The notes below the pieces were generated by a model, which saw only the letters and a program-made list of their open reading frames with translations, made no database searches and was not told the origin of the DNA. From contig CAVSHB010000001.1 of assembly GCA_963727775.1 (NCBI GenBank), forward strand, positions 768,001-832,000: a DNA stretch of 64,000 nucleotides, written 5' to 3'. The stretch's first letter is position 1; each line of letters begins with the position of its first letter. A program made the translations under genes and the position numbers. The stretch is from an uncultured Nitrospiraceae bacterium (lineage in GTDB: Bacteria; Nitrospirota; Thermodesulfovibrionia; Thermodesulfovibrionales; SM23-35). Shown here in pieces: positions 32,369-52,106 of this stretch.

Positions 32369-33496
32369 ATGGATAAGTATAGCAGCAAATATGTAGGAAT
32401 GGATGTGCACAAGGAAACGATAGCAGTAGCGATAGCAAAGGAAGGACGCGGGGAGCCGGTTTATTACGGAGAGATACCCAATAACGGTGAGTCAATAAGG
32501 AAGCTGGTTAAAAAAGTGGGTTCGAACGGGGAACGAGTATCGTTTTGCTATGAAGCCGGACCATGTGGGTATGAAGTATACCGTCAGTTGATTGATCTTG
32601 GTCAGAGGTGTGATGTGGTTGCTCCATCGCTTATCCCAAGGAAATCAGGAGATCGCGTGAAGACAGATCGGAGGGATGCTAACACTCTGACTCGGTTACA
32701 TCGTGCGGGAGAACTGACGCCGGTATGGGTTCCGGATAAAGAGCAGGAAGCGATGAGAGATTTAACCCGAGCCCGTGAAGATATGAAGACTATGGAAGGA
32801 CATGCCAAACAGCGGCTTGGAGCATTCCTTCTGCGTCATGGAAAGAGATATCCTGGGAGGAGTAAATGGACGCAGGCGCATTTTCGATGGCTGGAAGGGA
32901 TAAAGTTTGAGATTCCCGCACAGCAGCTTGTTTTCCAGGAGTATGTTGATACGGTCAAGCAAATGCAAAGGCGCGAGGCTTCACTGGAAGAAGAAATGCG
33001 TCACGCAGTAGAAGGGTGGTCTTTGGCGCCTGTAGTAACAGGTCTGATGGCACTTCGGGGTGTCGACATCATTACAGCAATGACGGTCATTGCCGAACTG
33101 GGCGACATCAGTCGCTTTGAATCTCCTCGTCAGCTCATGGCTCACCTGGGGTTAGTTCCGAGTGAGCACTCAAGCGGCAGTCGTCGCCAGCGAGGCGGGA
33201 TAACCAAAACCGGCAATGGACATGCAAGGCGTGTGCTTATAGAAGCTTCGTGGTGTTATCGATTGCCGGCACGCAAGACGGCTCATTTGCAGCGACGGGC
33301 AGAGAAGACCAGCGAAGCGGTACAAGCCATTGCATGGAAGGCGCAAAAACGGTTATGCAAGAGATATTGGTACTTGATCAATAAGGGGAAACTTCCGGTT
33401 CAAGCATGTACCGCTGTAGCACGTGAACTGAGCGGCTTTATTTGGGCAATTGCATGTGACGTAATGGGAAAGACTAATGCCTGTATCACCAGATAA
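32369..33496 (+). CDS. IS110-family recombinase
   Basis: GMDVHK, YEAGPCG, KTDRRD, HSSG. Confidence 0.95.
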   Translation: MDKYSSKYVGMDVHKETIAVAIAKEGRGEPVYYGEIPNNGESIRKLVKKVGSNGERVSFCYEAGPCGYEVYRQLIDLGQRCDVVAPSLIPRKSGDRVKTDRRDANTLTRLHRAGELTPVWVPDKEQEAMRDLTRAREDMKTMEGHAKQRLGAFLLRHGKRYPGRSKWTQAHFRWLEGIKFEIPAQQLVFQEYVDTVKQMQRREASLEEEMRHAVEGWSLAPVVTGLMALRGVDIITAMTVIAELGDISRFESPRQLMAHLGLVPSEHSSGSRRQRGGITKTGNGHARRVLIEASWCYRLPARKTAHLQRRAEKTSEAVQAIAWKAQKRLCKRYWYLINKGKLPVQACTAVARELSGFIWAIACDVMGKTNACITR

Positions 33497-34221: not shown

Positions 34222-34635
34222 ATGGAATTATTTTATCGGAAATCCAAAGAGCATGGTCTGAAAATAACCCCCCAGCGTACCGCTATCTATCAGGAACTTT
34301 TGAAAGCAAAGAACCACCCGTCTGCCGATGACATTTATAAAAGGATAGTAAAGAAGATTCCAAATATATCATTTGATACAGTAAACAGAACCCTCCTGAC
34401 ATTCTCCAAAATAGGGATTATAAATGTAGTTGAGGGGTACGGGCAAGCAAAGCGATATGATCCTGATATGGATATTCATCATCATTTCAGATGTATTCAG
34501 TGTGGCAGCATAATAGACTTTCACAACAAGGAGTATGCCAACATAACTGTCCCTGAAGAAATCAATAAACAGTTTACGGTGCTAAGTAAAAAGGTAGTTC
34601 TTGAAGGTCTTTGCAGTAAGTGCAGAAAAGGGTGA
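34222..34635 (+). CDS. Fur-family regulator (PerR-like)
   Basis: LKITPQR, HPSADDIY, HHHFRCIQC, CSKC; directly upstream of katG. Confidence 0.9.
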   Translation: MELFYRKSKEHGLKITPQRTAIYQELLKAKNHPSADDIYKRIVKKIPNISFDTVNRTLLTFSKIGIINVVEGYGQAKRYDPDMDIHHHFRCIQCGSIIDFHNKEYANITVPEEINKQFTVLSKKVVLEGLCSKCRKG

Positions 34636-34861
34636 TATTTTTTCTTCTTTAGTAGTATTTATTACTATATAGTAATTTTATATAATCTAGAGGAGGTGAT
34701 GACAATGCGTTAAGATAACTTTTCCCCGCTCGTGAATAATAAATAACGACAAATCTACACAAATGGTTGGGTTTGCCGTGATGATAGTGCTTGATGTGGC
34801 TTTTGGTTAAACACATAAGCAAAGATCTCTTTTACTGTTAAAGACAAAAAACCAATGTTAG

Positions 34862-37111
<2,250 letters not shown>

Positions 37112-37222
37112 CCGTAGCATAAACGTCTTCAATGTTCCGGGCAGCCTTTTTACGAGGCACAATGAAAGATATTATGATATGGAACCGCTGGAACCCACCG
37201 GTTCCGAAAAAGGAGGTAGATA

Positions 37223-37612
37223 ATGACAGGTTACGTTGGGCCAATTGAGAAACAAACATTAGATAACAACTTCTTCCGCAAGGTGCTGTTCACCGGTAAA
37301 TACAACCAGCTGGTGGTGATGTGTCTGCAAGGAGGCGAGGAAATCGGCAATGAGGTACATCCGACCGTCGACCAGTTCTTCCGCGTCGAAGAAGGGAAGG
37401 CCAAATTCGTTTTTAATGACAAGGAAGAGCACCTTGCGGGTGATGGGGACGCAGTGATAGTTGCTGCTGGAACATACCATAACGTTATTAATACGTCCCC
37501 AAACAAACCACTCAAGCTCTACACAATTTATAGTCCACCCAATCATCCTGATGGGACCGTACATAAAACAAAGGCTGAAGCAGATGCTGCTGAGGCTGCG
37601 GAACATCATTGA
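37223..37612 (+). CDS. Cupin domain protein
   Basis: IGNEVH...DQFFRVEEG...HNVIN...YTIYSPPNH. Confidence 0.88.
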   Translation: MTGYVGPIEKQTLDNNFFRKVLFTGKYNQLVVMCLQGGEEIGNEVHPTVDQFFRVEEGKAKFVFNDKEEHLAGDGDAVIVAAGTYHNVINTSPNKPLKLYTIYSPPNHPDGTVHKTKAEADAAEAAEHH

Positions 37613-38066
37613 ATTTCTGATCATGGGTACTCCCTTCCCTTATGGGGAGGGAATGAACTGGTAAATGCTCATATTCAATTTAAGTGATCAACAATTTGAG
37701 ATGAATTGATGTGCGCAGTTGACCGAAAAATGTTGTGGTTGAGTGGACCCCCTAAAAAGTCACCACTTGTGGCTGAAAGTGAGATTATCGAGTCGATCCA
37801 GGTGACGCGACTTTTTAGATTAAACCCACGGATTGAATAGCGGCCCTAGTAAGAGGATTAGAAACGGTAACTATTACTGTGGCGGAATGTCCACAGTATC
37901 ACGTAGTAGGTGTTGTCGAGAAAAGTGGCATGCGCCTTACGGGGCGAAAGAAACACAGCATTTCAGAGAGTCCTGAAAGACAACACTGCTTCCTCTTCTA
38001 AGTCACGCCTATGATATACTGAACAAAAGTGAAGATTATGACTTGATAGTCAATAGGAGAAATCCC

Positions 38067-38609
38067 ATGGATGCGCTTCTGCTAATTGATTTCCAAAAAG
38101 ACTTCTTTGCTGCAGACGGCCGGATGTCTCTCGGTTCTGAACAAGCAGAACATCTTATCGTGGTTGCCGATAGGCTGATTAATTATTTTCAGAAGAATAA
38201 AGGTGTAGTCATATTTATTGGTAACGAGTTCAACAAAGCCGACTTTGTTGGGAATCTCTTCAGAAGGTTTGCTGCGCTGAAGGGCAGTGACGGCGCACAA
38301 CTCGACTCGCGCATTAATAGTGAAGGTTATCCTTATTTCCCAAAGGCAAAAGCGGATGCATTTTCTAATCCTGATTTGGATACCTATTTGAAAAAGCATG
38401 CAGTGAGTAATATATATCTGTGTGGAGTATACTCGGAAGGCTGCATCAGGGCAACGGCTCTGGGTGCAAAGAAGAGAGGCTATCAAGTCTCTTTGGTAGT
38501 TGATGCAGTTTTATCCAACAGGAGATTTAAACACGATTGGGCGTTGTCGTATTTGAGCAACCGCGGCGTTACCCTAGTGAGTAGTGAAAGTCTATTGATG
38601 CACGCTTAA
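38067..38609 (+). CDS. Isochorismatase-family cysteine hydrolase
   Basis: ALLLIDFQKDF, K..DAF, GVYSEGCI. Confidence 0.88.
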   Translation: MDALLLIDFQKDFFAADGRMSLGSEQAEHLIVVADRLINYFQKNKGVVIFIGNEFNKADFVGNLFRRFAALKGSDGAQLDSRINSEGYPYFPKAKADAFSNPDLDTYLKKHAVSNIYLCGVYSEGCIRATALGAKKRGYQVSLVVDAVLSNRRFKHDWALSYLSNRGVTLVSSESLLMHA

Positions 38610-38818
38610 GAGAAATCCGCTGTTTCTCATAAAATGAAATATTCCGTTGTTAATGCCTTGCGCTGTCCTTCCTTGTAGTCCGCAGGGGGAGTATCGCGTC
38701 GAAGGGTGTTTGTTATGTTTTTGTAAATCAATACTCTCTTTCCAGACGCCAGCAAATTTCAAGTTAATATTCGGCTCGATATGATAAAATACGTAAAATG
38801 CTATAAGGAGGACTGTAT

Positions 38819-39259
38819 ATGAAAACGAAATTATCCTTAGTTGTGGTGATGCTTGCGATTGCGGTATGTGCAGGCTTGGTCTTCGCAGCTGGGGCGGAAA
38901 AGACATCAAAGGAGAGTGCTACAAAAGGATCTATTCTTTACGTTTGTAATTGTGGCGCTAAGTGCAAGTGCAATACTGTGTCGACAAAACCGGGGAAATG
39001 TGCCTGTGGCAAAGATCTTGTTCCGATGCATGTTTTGAAGATCGACAAAGATGAGGCTCTTCTCTGTACATGCGGAAAGGGATGCAAATGTAAAATTGAC
39101 GAGGCGGATCCCACTAAGTGTGGATGCGGGAAGCCCGTAAAGAGAGTGAGCCTGAAAGGCCTTTATGTCTGTAATTGCGGTCATGGTTGCAACTGTAATA
39201 CCATTTCTGATAAACCAGGCAAGTGCAAATGTGGTAAAGAGTTAAGGAAAGTCGAATAA
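38819..39259 (+). CDS. Exported Cys-rich repeat protein (metallothionein-like)
   Basis: Signal peptide followed by three repeats each carrying three CxC pairs. Confidence 0.85.
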   Translation: MKTKLSLVVVMLAIAVCAGLVFAAGAEKTSKESATKGSILYVCNCGAKCKCNTVSTKPGKCACGKDLVPMHVLKIDKDEALLCTCGKGCKCKIDEADPTKCGCGKPVKRVSLKGLYVCNCGHGCNCNTISDKPGKCKCGKELRKVE

Positions 39260-39473: not shown

Positions 39474-41093
39474 CCCAAAAAGTGCAGTTGACCTAAAATA
39501 ATATCCCCGAAGAAATTCTCCTTTCGTATTAGAATCAATAGGTTTACCCGACCATCAACTCTAAACGAAAGGAGAATAGAAATATGCAGTCAAAATGTAG
39601 CACAAAGATCGAAATAAATAAAGTAAGGATTGGATTTACGGAGAAGAAGATGACGGCATATGGGGGATTCAGTTTATTGGCTGCATTTTTTGAAAAGATC
39701 AAATTGAGAGGAATTTTGCAAGAGGTGATTCCGATCCATGAGAGTTCACCCAATGGAATGGGGATATACAGCAAGGTATTGGCATACATCCTTCTGATCT
39801 ATGCGGGAGGCAGCAGGTTTTCTCATCTACTTTATCTTGGTTGGCAGGAGATTTTCACCGATCTTTTTGCAGTGAAGAGGCTTCCTATCGCCTCGACGAC
39901 ATTGGGCAGGCTTTTCAGGAAGATCAGAAAACTGAAGGAAGTGGAAGAGATGTCGGAGGGATTATGGGGATACTTGAAGAGATTGATCCCCTGGAAAGAG
40001 CTCAAAGAGGACTGGTTGACGTTCGATTCTACAGTCCTTGAGCGATACGGAAAACAGGAGGGAGTCAAGAGGGGATATAACCCGAAGAAGAAGGGCCGTG
40101 GTAGCCACAGCCCGCTTCTGGCATTTCTTAACAGAAACAAGTATGTGATAAATCTTTGGAACCGCCCCGGCAACGTGATGTCATGGAACAACATTATTGG
40201 ATTTTTTGAATCCACATGGCAGAGGATCAACGGTCATATCGATATCAAGGGCATTATTGCAGACAGTGGATTTTATCTTAGGGAGTTCATCGAACTGCTT
40301 GAGAAGAGAGAATTAGTATATATCATAGCTGCTCGCCTATATCGTCCGCTGCAGAGGATAATCTACGCACAACAAAACTGGGCACAGGTAGAAGAAGGGA
40401 TATGGATCACTGAGTTCTTCTTCCAGCATGTAGAGTGGATAATCGACAGGAGGTTTATTGCAGTGCGCCAGGATGTCAAGAAGAGACCGCACGCGATGGG
40501 AAAAGAGTTGTCTCTTTTCGGAGATGAGTTTGATACAGGGCATTATCGTTATAGCGTATGGATAACCAATTCACATGATTCTACATATGAGGTATGGAAG
40601 CAATGCAGGCATAGGGCGAACGATGAGAATACCATCAAGGAACTGAAAGAGGATTTTGCACTCGGCGGGTTCTCGATGAAGTATTTCTACTCAACGGAGG
40701 CGGCTATGCTTATTCGGGTATTCATCTACAATCTGTTTGTCCTGTTCAGGCATCAGATACTCGGTCAAAAAGAAAAGACAGAACGTTTGAAAACCTTACG
40801 GTACAAGTATCTTGTCCTTCCAGCCCAATTAGGATGGGATGGAAGGAAACCTGTATTGCGGATTTCTGTCTTTACGCAGAAAGTACGATCAAAACTGCGC
40901 TACCTCTTTAACCGCGTGGGACAATACTTTCCCCCCAGTTTTGGTAATTGCACTGCATTTAGATAAAAAGAACATAATTTTCAGGAGGTGGAACAAGAAA
41001 CAGCATCAGTATTAGCTTTTATATCGACAAATCAGCCAATGCCTTGATAGGCTTGACTCTATAGGTATGCCTATAGCAAACGCATTTTTCGGG
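39474..41093 (+). mobile_element. IS1380-family element, copy 1, target duplication CTAA
   Basis: Ends CCCAAAAAGTGC.../...GCATTTTTCGGG; CTAA on both sides; 1620 bp. Confidence 0.88.
39584..40966 (+). CDS. IS1380-family DDE transposase
   Basis: TAYGG, FDSTV..YGKQEG, ADSGFY, RANDENTIKELK. Confidence 0.9.
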   Translation: MQSKCSTKIEINKVRIGFTEKKMTAYGGFSLLAAFFEKIKLRGILQEVIPIHESSPNGMGIYSKVLAYILLIYAGGSRFSHLLYLGWQEIFTDLFAVKRLPIASTTLGRLFRKIRKLKEVEEMSEGLWGYLKRLIPWKELKEDWLTFDSTVLERYGKQEGVKRGYNPKKKGRGSHSPLLAFLNRNKYVINLWNRPGNVMSWNNIIGFFESTWQRINGHIDIKGIIADSGFYLREFIELLEKRELVYIIAARLYRPLQRIIYAQQNWAQVEEGIWITEFFFQHVEWIIDRRFIAVRQDVKKRPHAMGKELSLFGDEFDTGHYRYSVWITNSHDSTYEVWKQCRHRANDENTIKELKEDFALGGFSMKYFYSTEAAMLIRVFIYNLFVLFRHQILGQKEKTERLKTLRYKYLVLPAQLGWDGRKPVLRISVFTQKVRSKLRYLFNRVGQYFPPSFGNCTAFR

Positions 41094-41469: not shown

Positions 41470-42027
41470 ATGAAATACTCAGCCTTATTACGGGCACTCC
41501 TGCTTTCCGGACTCATTACCGGCGGTATCGTCTTTTCAGGCTGCATAGGAAAGTCGGATGGAGCACACAGCGTATCAGCGCCGGGTCCGATCAAGGTCTA
41601 TTCTGCAGAAAAAGGGGGCTACGTCATGAGCGAAACTGTTAATAAGAGCAATGAAGAATGGAAAAAACTGCTGACACCCGAACAGTATCACATCATGCGG
41701 GAAAAGGGGACCGAGCGGGCATTTTCCGGAAAATACGCAGACTTCCACGAGCATGGCATTTATCGTTGCGCGGCCTGCGAGCTAGACCTGTTCAGGTCGG
41801 AAGACAAATATGAGTCAGGTACGGGATGGCCGAGCTTCACGGCGCCGATCGCCGCGGAGAACATAATCACCAAACCGGACAATACCCTTTTCAGTCATCG
41901 TACAGAAGTACTTTGCCATCGCTGCGGCAGCCATCTCGGCCACGTTTTTGACGATGGTCCCAAACCGACAGGGCTGCGCTACTGCATGAATTCGGCTGCC
42001 CTGCAATTCGTGGTAACCAAGAAATGA
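41470..42027 (+). CDS. msrB: Methionine-R-sulfoxide reductase with lipoprotein-like signal
   Basis: GTERAF, SGTGWPSF, HLGHVFDDGP, RYCMNS; N-terminal FSGC. Confidence 0.95.
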   Translation: MKYSALLRALLLSGLITGGIVFSGCIGKSDGAHSVSAPGPIKVYSAEKGGYVMSETVNKSNEEWKKLLTPEQYHIMREKGTERAFSGKYADFHEHGIYRCAACELDLFRSEDKYESGTGWPSFTAPIAAENIITKPDNTLFSHRTEVLCHRCGSHLGHVFDDGPKPTGLRYCMNSAALQFVVTKK

Positions 42028-42051: not shown

Positions 42052-42660
42052 ATGAAAATACTTATTACTGCGATGTTGGGACTTTCAGTCTTCCTCATCG
42101 CAACCACCACAGTCATGGCTGCACCTAATCTTGCGAAGGCAACTTTTGCGGGAGGTTGCTTCTGGTGTATGGAGCACCCCTTCGATGAGATTCCCGGCGT
42201 AGTTTCGGTAACATCCGGATACACTGGTGGGCAGAAAAAGAATCCCACCTACGAAGAGGTTTCGGCTGGAGGAACCGGACACGCTGAATCAGTGCAAATC
42301 GTCTATGACCCGACACGAGTTAGCTATGAACAGCTCTTAAACATCTTTTGGCACAACATCGACCCGACTTCAAAGGACCGGCAGTTCTGTGATTCCGGGC
42401 ATCAGTATCGAAGTGCTATTTTTTATCATTCTGAGGAACAGCACGAGCAGGCTCTGCAGTCGAAGGCATTATTGGAAAAGAACAAGCCCTTCAAAGAACC
42501 TGTCGTAACCGAGATTGTTCAGGCCACCGAGTTCTACCCGGCAGAGGATTATCACCAACACTATTACAAGAAGAACCCGATCCGATACAAATACTACCGT
42601 TTCAGATGTGGTCGTGACCAAAGACTTAAGGAGCTGTGGGGCAAAGCTGCAGGGCATTGA
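42052..42660 (+). CDS. msrA: Methionine-S-sulfoxide reductase with signal peptide
   Basis: AGGCFWC, GHAESV, FYPAEDYHQ. Confidence 0.95.
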   Translation: MKILITAMLGLSVFLIATTTVMAAPNLAKATFAGGCFWCMEHPFDEIPGVVSVTSGYTGGQKKNPTYEEVSAGGTGHAESVQIVYDPTRVSYEQLLNIFWHNIDPTSKDRQFCDSGHQYRSAIFYHSEEQHEQALQSKALLEKNKPFKEPVVTEIVQATEFYPAEDYHQHYYKKNPIRYKYYRFRCGRDQRLKELWGKAAGH

Positions 42661-42674
42661 TGGGATAGAATGAT

Positions 42675-42971
42675 ATGAAGAACCGAATAACTCAGTCTTT
42701 GACTCTTTTTGTTTTGATGCTGTTTCTCTTTTCAGGTTATGGGGTTTCTCTTGCACAAGATGCTAAAACATCCGAGGTTATTTTTTATGTGAAATGATTT
42801 GACGTTGGCAAGGAGGCCCTGGAAGGGCTGAAGGGAGTGAAGAGAGTTGAAAAAGGCTTTCGCAACTTTAAAGAGATAAATACTGTTTATTATGATCCAG
42901 CAGTAATTACGATTAAAGAAATGGAAATAGCCTTAAAGAAGGCAACTACTTACCTGGGAACAGTTAAGTAG
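42675..42971 (+). CDS. Putative exported selenoprotein with HMA/ferredoxin-like fold (UGA at 42795-42797); absent from the ORF track
   Basis: Manual translation MKNRITQSLTLFVLMLFLFSGYGVSLAQDAKTSEVIFYVK-U-FDVGKEALEGLKGVKRVEKGFRNFKEINTVYYDPAVITIKEMEIALKKATTYLGTVK; hairpin 18 nt after the UGA. Confidence 0.75.
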
Positions 42972-43049: not shown

Positions 43050-43748
43050 ATGTTAAATAAGACAATCACAAAAAGGATAGTGGTCGTAACCGTCGTGGTC
43101 GGACTCGTAGTGCTTTTTAAGGTTCTCGGACTCGGGCAGTATTTCACGCTCACCTACGTCAAGGCATCTCAGGAGAAATTTGCAGCTGTCTACGCTGATC
43201 ACAGGCTGATGGTAATCATCGCATACATGGTGAGCTATATACTTGTTACCTCATTATCATTGCCGGGTGCTGCCGTAATGACCTTGGCAGGCGGAGCGCT
43301 CTTCGGATTGTTGACGGGAACAATTGTTGTTTCCTTTGCAAGTACGATAGGTGCTACCTTAGCGTGCTTTGTCTCAAGGTCCGTTTTACGCGATTGGGTA
43401 CAAAACAAGTTCGCTGACAAGCTTAAAACAGTTAACGATGGGATAGAAAAAGAAGGAGCATTCTATTTATTCACCCTGAGATTGATTCCCGTCTTCCCGT
43501 TTTGGCTCATAAACCTTGTTATGGGACTGACGAAGATGCCTTTGAAGACCTTTTACCCAGTTTCGCAGGTAGGCATGCTGCCAGGAACCATAGTTTATGT
43601 CAATGCAGGAAAAGAGCTTGCCAAGATCGATTCTCTTTCGGGCATACTTTCCCCCGGGCTAATCCTCTCCTTTGTGCTTCTTGGACTTTTTCCGATAATT
43701 ACCAAGAAATTGCTTGCTTTCTATCAATCTAAGAAATTAAGAACATAG
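43050..43748 (+). CDS. TVP38/TMEM64 (DedA-superfamily) membrane protein
   Basis: LSLPGAAVMTLAGGALFG, LRLIPVFPFWLINL, GMLPGT. Confidence 0.9.
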   Translation: MLNKTITKRIVVVTVVVGLVVLFKVLGLGQYFTLTYVKASQEKFAAVYADHRLMVIIAYMVSYILVTSLSLPGAAVMTLAGGALFGLLTGTIVVSFASTIGATLACFVSRSVLRDWVQNKFADKLKTVNDGIEKEGAFYLFTLRLIPVFPFWLINLVMGLTKMPLKTFYPVSQVGMLPGTIVYVNAGKELAKIDSLSGILSPGLILSFVLLGLFPIITKKLLAFYQSKKLRT

Positions 43749-43773: not shown

Positions 43774-45225
43774 ATGGCAAATTACGATTTTGACATAGGA
43801 ATTCTCGGTGGTGGAGCTGCCGGACTTACTGTTGCGTCAGGTGCGGCCCAGTTTGGAGCAAAGACCCTTCTCGTTGAAAAAGAACATGAACTGGGAGGTG
43901 ACTGCCTCCATTACGGGTGTGTTCCAAGCAAAACGCTCATTAGGACTGCACATATCTACCATCTTATGAAGAATGCTGAAAAATACGGTCTTCCACGGGC
44001 AGACCTCAAACGAGTGGATTTCCAGGCAATCGCAGGAAGGATTCAATCTGTAATTAGTGCCATACAGGAACATGATTCGAAGGAACGGTTTTGCAAACTT
44101 GGTGCCAGGGTCGAATTCGGCAATGCAAATTTTACAGACGAACATTTAGTCCGGCTGAACGGTGAGATATTTTCTGCAAAGAGGTGGGTTATAGCCACCG
44201 GGTCATCTCCATTTATCCCGCCGATTGAAGGAATTGATAAAACACCCTATATTACGAACAAAGAACTTTTTTTACTGAAAAGTCTTCCGAAATCCATGAT
44301 CGCAATCGGCGGGGGTCCTATATCAATAGAGATGGCTGAGGCATTCAATCGACTGGGGACAAAAGTGACCGTAGTTGAACTTGCGAATCAGATTCTCGGG
44401 GCTTAGGACAAAGACATGGCTGAGCAGCTTATGAATAGTTTGATATCCGAAGGCATAACATTTCATCTGGGCTCTCTGCCCCTCAGCACAAAAGACCTTG
44501 GTAATGAAAAAGAGTTAATATTTAAAAATAACGAAGGCAAAATCTTAAACCTGAGGGCCGAAACCATACTTGTTGCCGTCGGAAGAAAAGCAAATCTCCA
44601 AGATCTCGGGCTGGAAGATATTTCAATGGAATTCGATAAAAAAGGGTTGAAGATAGACGACAGGCTCAGGACAAATCATAAGCACATCTTTGTTGCAGGG
44701 GATGCAACAGGCTCATATCAATTTACCCATGCAGCTGGCTATGAGGGGGGCATTGTGCTCAGCAACGCTATTCTTCATCTACCGAGAAAAGTGGATTATG
44801 CTTATCTGCCGTGGTGTACCTATACAGACCCTGAACTTGCCAGCATCGGGATGAACGAGAAGAGGGCGGCGGCGGCAGGCATATCATATTCTGTCTGGAC
44901 AGAAGAGTTTAAAACCAATGACCGAAGCCTTGCAGAAGGAGAAGAGACAGGGAGAATAAAGCTTCTCCTTGATGACAATGAAAAGCCTATAGGTATTCAG
45001 ATACTGGGACCAAGTGCGGGGGAACTGATCAGTGAATGGGTTGCGGTCATGAACGGGAATGTGAAGCTATCGACTATCGCATCAGCCATTCATCCTTATC
45101 CTACTCTTGGAGAAATCAACAAAAAGGTTGTGGGATCGTTTTTTTCCGGCAAGATCTTTTCCGAAAAGGTGAAAAAAGCTCTGAAATTCTTCTTCAATCT
45201 GAAGGGGAGAGCATGCGGAGCATAA
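43774..45225 (+). pseudogene. Pyridine nucleotide-disulfide oxidoreductase (LpdA/MerA-like) split by in-frame TAG at 44404-44406
   Basis: GGGAAG, GGDCLHYGCVPSK, then QILGA-TAG-DKDMAE in the same frame, AGDATG, HPYPT. Confidence 0.85.
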
Positions 45226-45914: not shown

Positions 45915-47505
45915 CTGATATGTATTAAACCTGTCAAGTGGGTATTTTTATTGCCTCTTATATGGTCTCCTTTGAGCGTGTGAACTTAGGGCAGAACAGC
46001 AGTGATAAACGACGGTAGATCACTCTGATATACGCGGGTTGGGTACCGCATGACTTATTTTCGTCGTGGAGCTGCCTCTGTCTAACATCGAGGGTCATCC
46101 TATATTCAGGCGCCTCATAGTAGGTACGAGGGATCTCCCCACCGACTGCTGCCCTGGCCGAAGTGCACATTTTCCAAATAAATAGCGTTGTCTGGAGGAG
46201 CGGAGAAACACTCCACCTCTTTTGGAGCCCCGGAAGACAACACCGATAGTTTCGTTCTGTCGTCAATTCGTTTTATCCTTATCTGGTGATACAGGCATTA
46301 GTCTTTCCCATTACGTCACATGCAATTGCCCAAATAAAGCCGCTCAGTTCACGTGCTACAGCGGTACATGCTTGAACCGGAAGTTTCCCCTTATTGATCA
46401 AGTACCAATATCTCTTGCATAACCGTTTTTGCGCCTTCCATGCAATGGCTTGTACCGCTTCGCTGGTCTTCTCTGCCCGTCGCTGCAAATGAGCCGTCTT
46501 GCGTGCCGGCAATCGATAACACCACGAAGCTTCTATAAGCACACGCCTTGCATGTCCATTGCCGGTTTTGGTTATCCCGCCTCGCTGGCGACGACTGCCG
46601 CTTGAGTGCTCACTCGGAACTAACCCCAGGTGAGCCATGAGCTGACGAGGAGATTCAAAGCGACTGATGTCGCCCAGTTCGGCAATGACCGTCATTGCTG
46701 TAATGATGTCGACACCCCGAAGTGCCATCAGACCTGTTACTACAGGCGCCAAAGACCACCCTTCTACTGCGTGACGCATTTCTTCTTCCAGTGAAGCCTC
46801 GCGCCTTTGCATTTGCTTGACCGTATCAACATACTCCTGGAAAACAAGCTGCTGTGCGGGAATCTCAAACTTTATCCCTTCCAGCCATCGAAAATGCGCC
46901 TGCGTCCATTTACTCCTCCCAGGATATCTCTTTCCATGACGCAGAAGGAATGCTCCAAGCCGCTGTTTGGCATGTCCTTCCATAGTCTTCATATCTTCAC
47001 GGGCTCGGGTTAAATCTCTCATCGCTTCCTGCTCTTTATCCGGAACCCATACCGGCGTCAGTTCTCCCGCACGATGTAACCGAGTCAGAGTGTTAGCATC
47101 CCTCCGATCTGTCTTCACGCGATCTCCTGATTTCCTTGGGATAAGCGATGGAGCAACCACATCACACCTCTGACCAAGATCAATCAACTGACGGTATACT
47201 TCATACCCACATGGTCCGGCTTCATAGCAAAACGATACTCGTTCCCCGTTCGAACCCACTTTTTTAACCAGCTTCCTTATTGACTCACCGTTATTGGGTA
47301 TCTCTCCGTAATAAACCGGCTCCCCGCGTCCTTCCTTTGCTATCGCTACTGCTATCGTTTCCTTGTGCACATCCATTCCTACATATTTGCTGCTATACTT
47401 ATCCATAACCTGTCCTCCTTAATTGTGGCTCTGAGCCTATGGTTTTTTCACCTTAAAGCTTAATCCACGTGCCTTAAGGTTGGACAGGTTTAATACATTA
47501 TGTCT
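45915..47505 (-). mobile_element. IS110-family (IS1111-type) element, copy 2
   Basis: Inverted copy of 32270-33860 with identical protein. Confidence 0.92.
46279..47406 (-). CDS. IS110-family recombinase
   Basis: Protein identical to 32369-33496. Confidence 0.95.
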   Translation of the reverse strand: MDKYSSKYVGMDVHKETIAVAIAKEGRGEPVYYGEIPNNGESIRKLVKKVGSNGERVSFCYEAGPCGYEVYRQLIDLGQRCDVVAPSLIPRKSGDRVKTDRRDANTLTRLHRAGELTPVWVPDKEQEAMRDLTRAREDMKTMEGHAKQRLGAFLLRHGKRYPGRSKWTQAHFRWLEGIKFEIPAQQLVFQEYVDTVKQMQRREASLEEEMRHAVEGWSLAPVVTGLMALRGVDIITAMTVIAELGDISRFESPRQLMAHLGLVPSEHSSGSRRQRGGITKTGNGHARRVLIEASWCYRLPARKTAHLQRRAEKTSEAVQAIAWKAQKRLCKRYWYLINKGKLPVQACTAVARELSGFIWAIACDVMGKTNACITR

Positions 47506-50486: not shown

Positions 50487-52106
50487 CCCGAAAAATGCGT
50501 TTGCTATAGGCATACCTATAGAGTCAAGCCTATCAAGGCATTGGCTGATTTGTCGATATAAAAGCTAATACTGATGCTGTTTCTTGTTCCACCTCCTGAA
50601 AATTATGTTCTTTTTATCTAAATGCAGTGCAATTACCAAAACTGGGTGGAAAGTATTGTCCCACGCGGTTAAAGAGGTAGCGCAGTTTTGATCGTACTTT
50701 CTGCGTAAAGACAGAAATCCGCAATACAGGTTTCCTTCCATCCCATCCTAATTGGGCTGGAAGGACAAGATACTTGTACCGTAAGGTTTTCAAACGTTCT
50801 GTCTTTTCTTTTTGACCGAGTATCTGATGCCTGAACAGGACAAACAGATTGTAGATGAATACCCGAATAAGCATAGCCGCCTCCGTTGAGTAGAAATACT
50901 TCATCGAGAACCCGCCGAGTGCAAAATCCTCTTTCAGTTCCTTGATGGTATTCTCATCGTTCGCCCTATGCCTGCATTGCTTCCATACCTCATATGTAGA
51001 ATCATGTGAATTGGTTATCCATACGCTATAACGATAATGCCCTGTATCAAACTCATCTCCGAAAAGAGACAACTCTTTTCCCATCGCGTGCGGTCTCTTC
51101 TTGACATCCTGGCGCACTGCAATAAACCTCCTGTCGATTATCCACTCTACATGCTGGAAGAAGAACTCAGTGATCCATATCCCTTCTTCTACCTGTGCCC
51201 AGTTTTGTTGTGCGTAGATTATCCTCTGCAGCGGACGATATAGGCGAGCAGCTATGATATATACTAATTCTCTCTTCTCAAGCAGTTCGATGAACTCCCT
51301 AAGATAAAATCCACTGTCTGCAATAATGCCCTTGATATCGATATGACCGTTGATCCTCTGCCATGTGGATTCAAAAAATCCAATAATGTTGTTCCATGAC
51401 ATCACGTTGCCGGGGCGGTTCCAAAGATTTATCACATACTTGTTTCTGTTAAGAAATGCCAGAAGCGGGCTGTGGCTACCACGGCCCTTCTTCTTCGGGT
51501 TATATCCCCTCTTGACTCCCTCCTGTTTTCCGTATCGCTCAAGGACTGTAGAATCGAACGTCAACCAGTCCTCTTTGAGCTCTTTCCAGGGGATCAATCT
51601 CTTCAAGTATCCCCATAATCCCTCCGACATCTCTTCCACTTCCTTCAGTTTTCTGATCTTCCTGAAAAGCCTGCCCAATGTCGTCGAGGCGATAGGAAGC
51701 CTCTTCACTGCAAAAAGATCGGTGAAAATCTCCTGCCAACCAAGATAAAGTAGATGAGAAAACCTGCTGCCTCCCGCATAGATCAGAAGGATGTATGCCA
51801 ATACCTTGCTGTATATCCCCATTCCATTGGGTGAACTCTCATGGATCGGAATCACCTCTTGCAAAATTCCTCTCAATTTGATCTTTTCAAAAAATGCAGC
51901 CAATAAACTGAATCCCCCATATGCCGTCATCTTCTTCTCCGTAAATCCAATCCTTACTTTATTTATTTCGATCTTTGTGCTACATTTTGACTGCATATTT
52001 CTATTCTCCTTTCGTTTAGAGTTGATGGTCGGGTAAACCTATTGATTCTAATACGAAAGGAGAATTTCTTCGGGGATATTATTTTAGGTCAACTGCACTT
52101 TTTGGG
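50487..52106 (-). mobile_element. IS1380-family element, copy 2, target duplication TTAA
   Basis: Near-identical inverted copy; TTAA at 50483-86 and 52107-10. Confidence 0.9.
50614..51996 (-). CDS. IS1380-family transposase
   Basis: Protein identical to 39584-40966. Confidence 0.9.
   Translation of the reverse strand: MQSKCSTKIEINKVRIGFTEKKMTAYGGFSLLAAFFEKIKLRGILQEVIPIHESSPNGMGIYSKVLAYILLIYAGGSRFSHLLYLGWQEIFTDLFAVKRLPIASTTLGRLFRKIRKLKEVEEMSEGLWGYLKRLIPWKELKEDWLTFDSTVLERYGKQEGVKRGYNPKKKGRGSHSPLLAFLNRNKYVINLWNRPGNVMSWNNIIGFFESTWQRINGHIDIKGIIADSGFYLREFIELLEKRELVYIIAARLYRPLQRIIYAQQNWAQVEEGIWITEFFFQHVEWIIDRRFIAVRQDVKKRPHAMGKELSLFGDEFDTGHYRYSVWITNSHDSTYEVWKQCRHRANDENTIKELKEDFALGGFSMKYFYSTEAAMLIRVFIYNLFVLFRHQILGQKEKTERLKTLRYKYLVLPAQLGWDGRKPVLRISVFTQKVRSKLRYLFNRVGQYFPPSFGNCTAFR

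Follow-up and report, generated by a model that had tools for sequence, protein, structure and literature searches.

What occupies the 389 bp between msrA and a TVP38/VTT gene (43050-43748) in this window (the whole 64,000-nucleotide stretch analysed here), and what might its product do? The gap holds a plus-strand frame of 98 codons with a single in-frame TGA at codon 41 and zero Cys codons (Table 1). The preliminary description had proposed a hidden frame of this length with one UGA in FYVK-U-FDVG and a lone Sec without a partner Cys; we found the same frame, which gene callers miss, and its translation is free of Cys throughout. A signal peptide had also been assigned. Its first residues are basic and a hydrophobic stretch follows (Kyte-Doolittle 12-residue maximum 2.67), a pattern common to 122/128 full-length homologues. 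From this pattern we infer that the protein is exported, with cleavage after VSLA. A promoter and terminator scan gave results at chance level.

Table 1. Positions of the cassette genes and of the selenoprotein's sequence features in the window.
Feature	Position	Strand	Basis
msrB, opens the msrB-msrA-selenoprotein cassette; N-terminus hydrophobic	41470..42027	+	Pfam SelR
msrA, Cys form (GGCFWC), hydrophobic N-terminus, ends 14 bp before the selenoprotein gene	42052..42660	+	Pfam PMSR
Selenoprotein gene, 98 residues (mini-MsrA/HMA-fold)	42675..42971	+	translation, homologues, structural model
Predicted export signal, about residues 1-27	42675..42755	+	sequence and hydrophobicity
In-frame UGA, probable Sec41; aligns with catalytic Cys51 of MsrA and with the second CxxC Cys of HMA	42795..42797	+	
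SECIS hairpin with a stem of 6 bp; its GGA loop lies 23 nt past the UGA	42815..42829	+	fits the bSECIS model in excerpts of PMC13188914
Glu67, aligned with MsrA general acid Glu94	42873..42875	+	Glu in 251/259 aligned rows

To see what the UGA stands for, we collected copies of the gene with a pattern left open at the key codon, over all fetched loci; these came from a genome collection (34 loci), 301 genomes of the host phylum, 251 of a second phylum and 61 relatives of one carrier. Among the 74 distinct copies, a set without those truncated at contig ends or not caught by the pattern (e.g. L034, L069 and L155), the key codon is TGA in 56, TGT or TGC in 16, CGA in one, AGC in one and TGG in none; the carrier genomes are related, and these codon counts, like the hairpin counts below, are not independent trials. 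Coding sequence is conserved on both sides of the UGA, and genuine Cys homologues exist. A conserved UGA or Cys between conserved flanks, and not Trp, is what the preliminary description had proposed to look for at this position, and is what the copies show. Recoding as Trp was rejected, TGG being absent from all 74. Of 174 database protein rows, 92 have Trp at the key column and 77 have Cys, and many database entries are 55-residue fragments that begin after the UGA, some of them named 'copper chaperone CopZ'. Only three of the 92 Trp-form proteins could be matched to fetched DNA; since all three have TGA, we take the Trp forms to be artefacts of gene calling.

On a tree of 66 representatives, 41 with Cys and 25 in the Trp form, computed with the key column masked, 14 changes are required, of which supported branches force only two; repeated exchange between Sec and Cys is likely in this family. 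The residue has been lost altogether from two copies, which carry CGA (Arg) and AGC (Ser) (L005:4121 and L151), and a near-identical Arg protein (P0005) is in the protein set. One locus (L137, G087:C1:217500-237499) holds four copies of the gene in 14 kb, two with TGA, one with Cys just before msrAB and one a decayed Cys copy, along with repeated two-component genes.

The preliminary description had taken a hairpin with a GCCCT-GGA-AGGGC core (42816-42828), 18 nt past the UGA, as the SECIS element. The bSECIS criteria in the accessible part of PMC13188914 are a stem of 4-16 bp, a loop of 3-9 nt with a G, a distance of 16-37 nt from the UGA and an MFE <= -7.5; the hairpin has 6 bp, a GGA loop, a distance of 23 nt and -8.3 kcal/mol. 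By itself it is not significantly more stable than shuffled sequence (z 0.33, -0.98 and -0.28 in three windows), so that support for it is comparative. The five stem pairs and the GG of the loop are all intact in 50/56 TGA copies versus 0/16 Cys copies, which bears the assignment out. Synonymous stem positions are frozen in the TGA copies (CTG in 56/56, GCC in 55/56) and vary in the Cys copies (5/16 and 8/16), and the L158 copy has a two-sided stem change from C-G to T-A. SelB would read this hairpin and insert Sec. We rejected a pseudogene on account of the conservation either side of the UGA, the Cys homologues and the way in which the hairpin tracks the UGA.

The host genome carries selA, two copies of selB, two of selD (both selD copies containing a TGA themselves) and a tRNA-Sec(UCA), which is selC; the set that the preliminary description had proposed to look for is thus all present. 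Across genomes, selA is found in 47 of 51 carriers (three of the 51 are repeats) versus 148 of 301 genomes of the phylum. Those 301 include 25 carriers (E<1e-10), all in selA-bearing families, with none among the 142 genomes of selA-less families, kin in these counts not being independent; overall, carriers include Nitrospirota and Desulfobacterota-type organisms. A second Sec signal, earlier noted in arsS, is upheld by a TIGR04167 match above cut-off at 1760-2695, in which the frame reads GQGSS-U-AGA with Sec at TGA 2693-2695. The arsS region (1760-2740, +) continues with a short read-through tail and then a GC-rich hairpin downstream.

Taken together, the conserved in-frame UGA very likely encodes selenocysteine. 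Two 95-nt Sec-like tRNA-Cys(GCA) genes flank the second selB of the host (G000:C1:1561763-1566859, L044). They bear on a quite different account, which we regard as very improbable: that the UGA is a stop, in a dead gene or ahead of a 55-residue downstream product, that it is read as Trp, or that it always receives Cys through a Sec-like tRNA-Cys. The database Trp forms and fragments favour that account, as do these tRNA genes, of a kind that in Desulfotomaculum delivers Cys to UGA codons for Sec (excerpts of PMC11415595), but it is opposed by the absence of TGG, the TGA behind each DNA-matched Trp protein, the conserved flanks, the true Cys homologues and the UGA-tracking hairpin. The tRNA-Cys genes are likely a Cys-for-Sec backup. 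Because the host has two of them beside its second selB, some chains of the selenoprotein may receive Cys; partial Cys insertion at low selenium is possible in this host and would leave our model unchanged.

What kind of protein carries the Sec? The preliminary description had suggested an HMA-like fold. AlphaFold2, with a 78-row alignment, predicts a beta-alpha-beta-beta-alpha-beta domain of about 70 residues at pLDDT 94, for which Foldseek returns MerP as the best match (TM 0.80; MsrA 0.68), in support of the suggested fold; the relationship to MsrA had been missed. By VIA, Z reaches 9.8 for HMA and 6.7-8.3 for MsrA cores, and a PDB profile search gives E 1.5e-4 for MerP and 0.016 for MsrA. 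Superposition gives an rmsd of 1.3-1.8 A over 66-71 residues for MsrA cores, including the clostridial MsrA U16C structure 4lwj, and 1.7-2.9 A for HMA rows. The family databases are divided: weak NCBIfam matches are to CopZ for 50/78 members and to MsrAB for 24/78, and Pfam PMSR is weakly matched by 18/78 and HMA by 2/78 (best member E 0.082). Language-model features of a natural Cys homologue lean toward HMA (0.82), a lead only.

Around the Sec, the preceding strand, the following aromatic, a G-aromatic pair and a Glu fit MsrA better than HMA. In hhalign the family aligns with MsrA at a probability of 97.6, with Sec41 on the Cys of GGCFW and Glu67 on the Glu of HAE, across a 17-residue deletion. 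The profile scores are 60.9 for the family against 26 MsrA proteins, 48.5 for the family against 40 HMA domains and 28.4 for HMA against MsrA, the three sets having all been chosen by motif, for these scores and for the position comparison. The latter finds F at -4, an aromatic at +1 and G-aromatic at +20/+21 as in MsrA, and a C-terminal A-G-T-Y as in HMA. The alignment to MsrA includes the first strand, while that to HMA starts only at the Cys yet includes the last helix. In 259 search matches aligned to the profile, the F is found in 166/166 rows, G61 in 227/253 and E67 as given in Table 1; a Glu at the equivalent position is also present in 12/31 HMA domains.

The catalytic residues of MsrA (E. 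coli numbering, checked) are Cys51, Glu94, Tyr82 and Tyr134 (excerpts of PMC6316033 and PMC6210582). The family has Asp in 158/176 rows at the position of MsrA Trp53, so that GCFWG is missing and the motif reads K-U-F-D-V-G; the 17-residue deletion removes the Tyr82 loop; and a conserved Thr92-Tyr93 precedes the last strand, in a register that is uncertain by one residue relative to Tyr134. The protein ends at residue 98, without the C-terminal half of MsrA or a resolving Cys. On the HMA side, the G-M-x-C-x-x-C loop is absent and there is one Cys or Sec in 78/78 mature domains. The earlier placement of the Sec within a CxxC loop must therefore be withdrawn; it is in register with the second HMA Cys and with the MsrA catalytic Cys. 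Because two MsrA catalytic residues are kept, Tyr82 is lost and Tyr134 may be kept, we consider the family a member of neither group. Membership in MsrA (PF01625) was rejected, as Trp53, the Tyr82 loop and the C-terminal half are missing and the query is below the Pfam cut-off, and membership in HMA (PF00403) was rejected because the metal loop is absent and the query is again below the cut-off. The protein is an HMA-sized domain bearing an MsrA-type reactive centre, and it is predicted to resemble the bare catalytic core of MsrA.

The gene neighbourhood is one of methionine-sulfoxide repair, not metal transport. An msrA, msrB or MsrP/SorA-type Mo-enzyme gene lies within 1.5 kb in 44/58 loci (12/12 Cys copies and 32/46 others), counted in flanks that vary in length and are in some cases cut by contig ends, and an Msr-type neighbour is present in 5/9 new loci of the second-phylum sample. 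The Mo-enzyme neighbours score under the MsrP cut-off. There are no more than three msrA genes in the 3.4 Mb of the host, and the msrB-msrA-selenoprotein unit is duplicated intact on contig C3, after a Met-rich ORF and without TVP38. In this second cassette (G000:C3:561076-563515, L042) the upstream exported ORF has 164 aa with 51 Met, and the selenoprotein gene has lost 1 nt close to its 3' end. Met-rich exported ORFs are close to the selenoprotein gene in 10 loci; a two-component system, YHS-domain proteins (NF041384) and cytochrome b also recur nearby. Neither thioredoxin nor CcdA/DsbD recurs among the ORF clusters present in at least 3 of 36 loci; DsbD/CcdA-type genes are present elsewhere in the host genome. 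TVP38 and an FAD oxidoreductase were rejected as core partners, both being absent from the duplicated cassette and TVP38 being found in the fetched flanks of only 6/36 loci.

Other features of the region deserve mention. The FAD-dependent oxidoreductase gene after TVP38 (43774-45225, +) has one in-frame TAG at 44404-44406, a mutation or sequencing error. Upstream, 34222-39259 (+) holds a Fur-family gene, a 727-aa ORF, which we take to be a catalase-peroxidase, and a Cys-rich ORF of 146 aa, which is hydrophobic at its N-terminus and weakly matches a heavy-metal-binding repeat; a transposase-like ORF separates these from the cassette. The region is flanked by identical 460-aa ORFs (39584-40966, +; 50614-51996, -) and by related 375-aa ORFs (32369-33496, +; 46279-47406, -), all transposase-like by eye.

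In 4/74 copies (L146, L152, L156 and L157), the signal and the U-containing domain are joined through a Pro-rich linker to a complete MsrA that has a U of its own, and each UGA has its own hairpin. The carriers are four closely related genomes, and the four fusions may be one event; a fifth is probably present at L155. Only DNA revealed the fusions: protein searches returned no longer forms, or three read-through artefacts without a Pfam domain. The fused Sec-MsrA genes of L146, L152 and L156 adjoin ORFs that resemble, by eye, AhpD-type and ArsS proteins of arsenosugar clusters, and at L146 a peroxiredoxin-like frame with an in-frame UGA lies upstream.

As the selenoprotein gene adjoins, and is sometimes fused to, methionine-repair genes, its product is likely to serve the repair of oxidised envelope proteins and not to carry metal. 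The contrary proposal, an exported carrier or trap of the HMA/MerP type that binds Hg, Cu or Ag through its one Sec, possibly with two copies per ion, appears improbable to us. MerP, CopZ and ATP7 domains are the best whole-fold matches, the C-terminal helix and A-G-(T)-Y end are as in HMA and not MsrA, MerP is periplasmic (by its PDB title), and a His stands just before the Cys in 21/78 members. However, such a carrier would lack the G-M-x-C-x-x loop, Pfam HMA does not match the query, a single P-type ATPase (L013) occurs among 58 ORFs annotated from 36 loci, the recurrent FAD oxidoreductase is under the MerA cut-off, and the context is one of Msr genes, with fusion to Sec-MsrA.

We tentatively suggest, without reaching even confidence, that this probably exported selenoprotein, with its predicted MsrA-core-like fold and single Sec, is a redox helper that re-reduces the neighbouring exported MsrA and MsrB. 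From its place at the head of helix 1, the selenol would attack an oxidised sulfur or selenium (a sulfenic or selenenic acid or a disulfide) on an Msr, and Glu67 would act as the acid, as Glu94 does in MsrA. Our guess is that the lone Sec could in turn be re-reduced by a membrane donor or, in these anaerobes, by sulfide. With Trp53, the Tyr82 loop and the C-terminal half lost, the protein probably does not bind MetO in the manner of MsrA. We favour a helper because the MsrA substrate pocket is gone, because the gene travels with complete Msr enzymes and because the fused domain has the position of a recycling domain: in PilB, a thioredoxin domain occupies the same N-terminal place before MsrA (excerpts of PMC6210582).

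Several points count against a helper. Whole-fold searches with the predicted model put HMA first, and a relay with one Sec would have to work without a resolving residue. Known Msr recyclers are thioredoxin folds with CxxC. The DsbD/CcdA-type genes elsewhere in the host, the Glu found in some HMA domains and the possibly single origin of the fusions also weigh against it. Seven loci have Mo-enzyme neighbours only, for which no thiol relay is needed (L017, L018, L019, L023, L028, L142 and L147), and 14/58 loci have no Msr gene within 1.5 kb. A complex prediction for a Cys-form member with the adjacent MsrAB scored 0.00, carrying no weight either way.

The selenoprotein could instead be a minimal reductase or sacrificial scavenger in its own right, working beside the Msr enzymes, with the Sec attacking sulfoxide, hypochlorite or peroxide by MsrA chemistry, a role that we think possible but rather unlikely. 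Equivalents of Cys51, Phe52 and Glu94 are kept, the invariant Thr-Tyr before the last strand may stand for Tyr134 (its register is uncertain), and the gene is found in clusters with a Mo enzyme alone and beside Met-rich exported peptides, a setting reminiscent of the MrpX/YedY hypochlorite system (excerpts of PMC4436054). Against this, Asp replaces Trp53 (158/176), the 17 residues of the Tyr82 loop are deleted and the C-terminal half is missing, and a second reductase would be superfluous in the fusions with a complete MsrA. Returning to the helper, a broader proposal, and one that we find unlikely, is that the Sec/Cys family is both an extant structural link from HMA metallochaperones to the MsrA core and a thioredoxin-free, one-selenol recycler of exported Msr in anaerobic Nitrospirota and Desulfobacterota. 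If it is true, the natural double-Sec fusions to MsrA are ready-made test enzymes.

The family is real, and the recoding mechanism itself is ordinary. The family is apparently uncatalogued: in NCBIfam 20 and Pfam no model scores over its cut-off for the query; it is not recognisable in the 119-entry selenoprotein family table in the accessible part of PMC13188914; its motifs are absent from the four deep-Sep supplements available for PMC12013277; and it was not found in the text terms and part of one supplement (a genome list) of PMC13326102 (BSepDB), nor in the accessible part of 10.1101/2022.07.06.499078. Searches of openly available full text gave no description of it. What is added is a widespread selenoprotein family, which databases truncate to a 55-residue fragment, translate with Trp in error or name CopZ, and which points to an unrecognised component of envelope protein repair in anaerobes. 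As the family is closer in profile to MsrA and to HMA than those two are to each other, the origin of the MsrA active site becomes testable with a 72-residue protein.

Among known systems, the family is like MsrA (PF01625, TIGR00401; Sec forms, PDB 4lwj U16C) in the F-x-x-x-C/U-aromatic at the start of helix 1, the GV..V..G-aromatic, the Glu94 equivalent and YDP, in a core that superposes at 1.3-1.8 A, and in having MsrA as gene neighbour and fusion partner. Unlike MsrA, it is a mature domain of 72 residues with x-U-F/Y-D-V-G instead of GCFWG, under the family cut-offs, and is without Trp53, the Tyr82 loop, the C-terminal half and the resolving Cys. It shares with HMA (MerP, CopZ, ATP7; PF00403, TIGR02052) its size, the beta-alpha-beta-beta-alpha-beta fold, a Cys or Sec in the second-Cys register, the C-terminal helix, an A-G-Y-like end and, with the exported MerP, a predicted export signal, but differs in its single Sec or Cys, in having no G-M-x-C-x-x-C loop and in a context from which metal-transport genes are missing.

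Two NCBIfam selenoprotein models match weakly, and membership in both was rejected. The UxxU metal-binding (seleno)protein NF041115 is likewise a small selenoprotein and matches over residues 41-89, but our protein has one Sec and no UxxU and scores 25.8 bits against a cut-off of 95. Positions 140-201 of NF041383, the VPGUxxT thioredoxin-like (seleno)protein type 2, weakly match 78/78 members, a region that also matches host msrA genes; the match is confined to those positions, the thioredoxin domain is missing, the Sec lies in the MsrA-like part and the score is 31.5 bits against a cut-off of 275. A search for NF041383 members in 151 genomes found none, with an equally silent control.

The closest parallels in setting, as far as the accessible parts of the sources on them go, are MrpX/YedY, which shares envelope methionine repair with Met-rich exported peptide and Mo-enzyme neighbours, and PilB (N-terminal thioredoxin-MsrA-MsrB), which shares the envelope methionine-repair setting and an N-terminal redox domain fused to MsrA. 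What is added here is not a CxxC thioredoxin, as in PilB, but a one-Sec domain of the MsrA/HMA-type fold.
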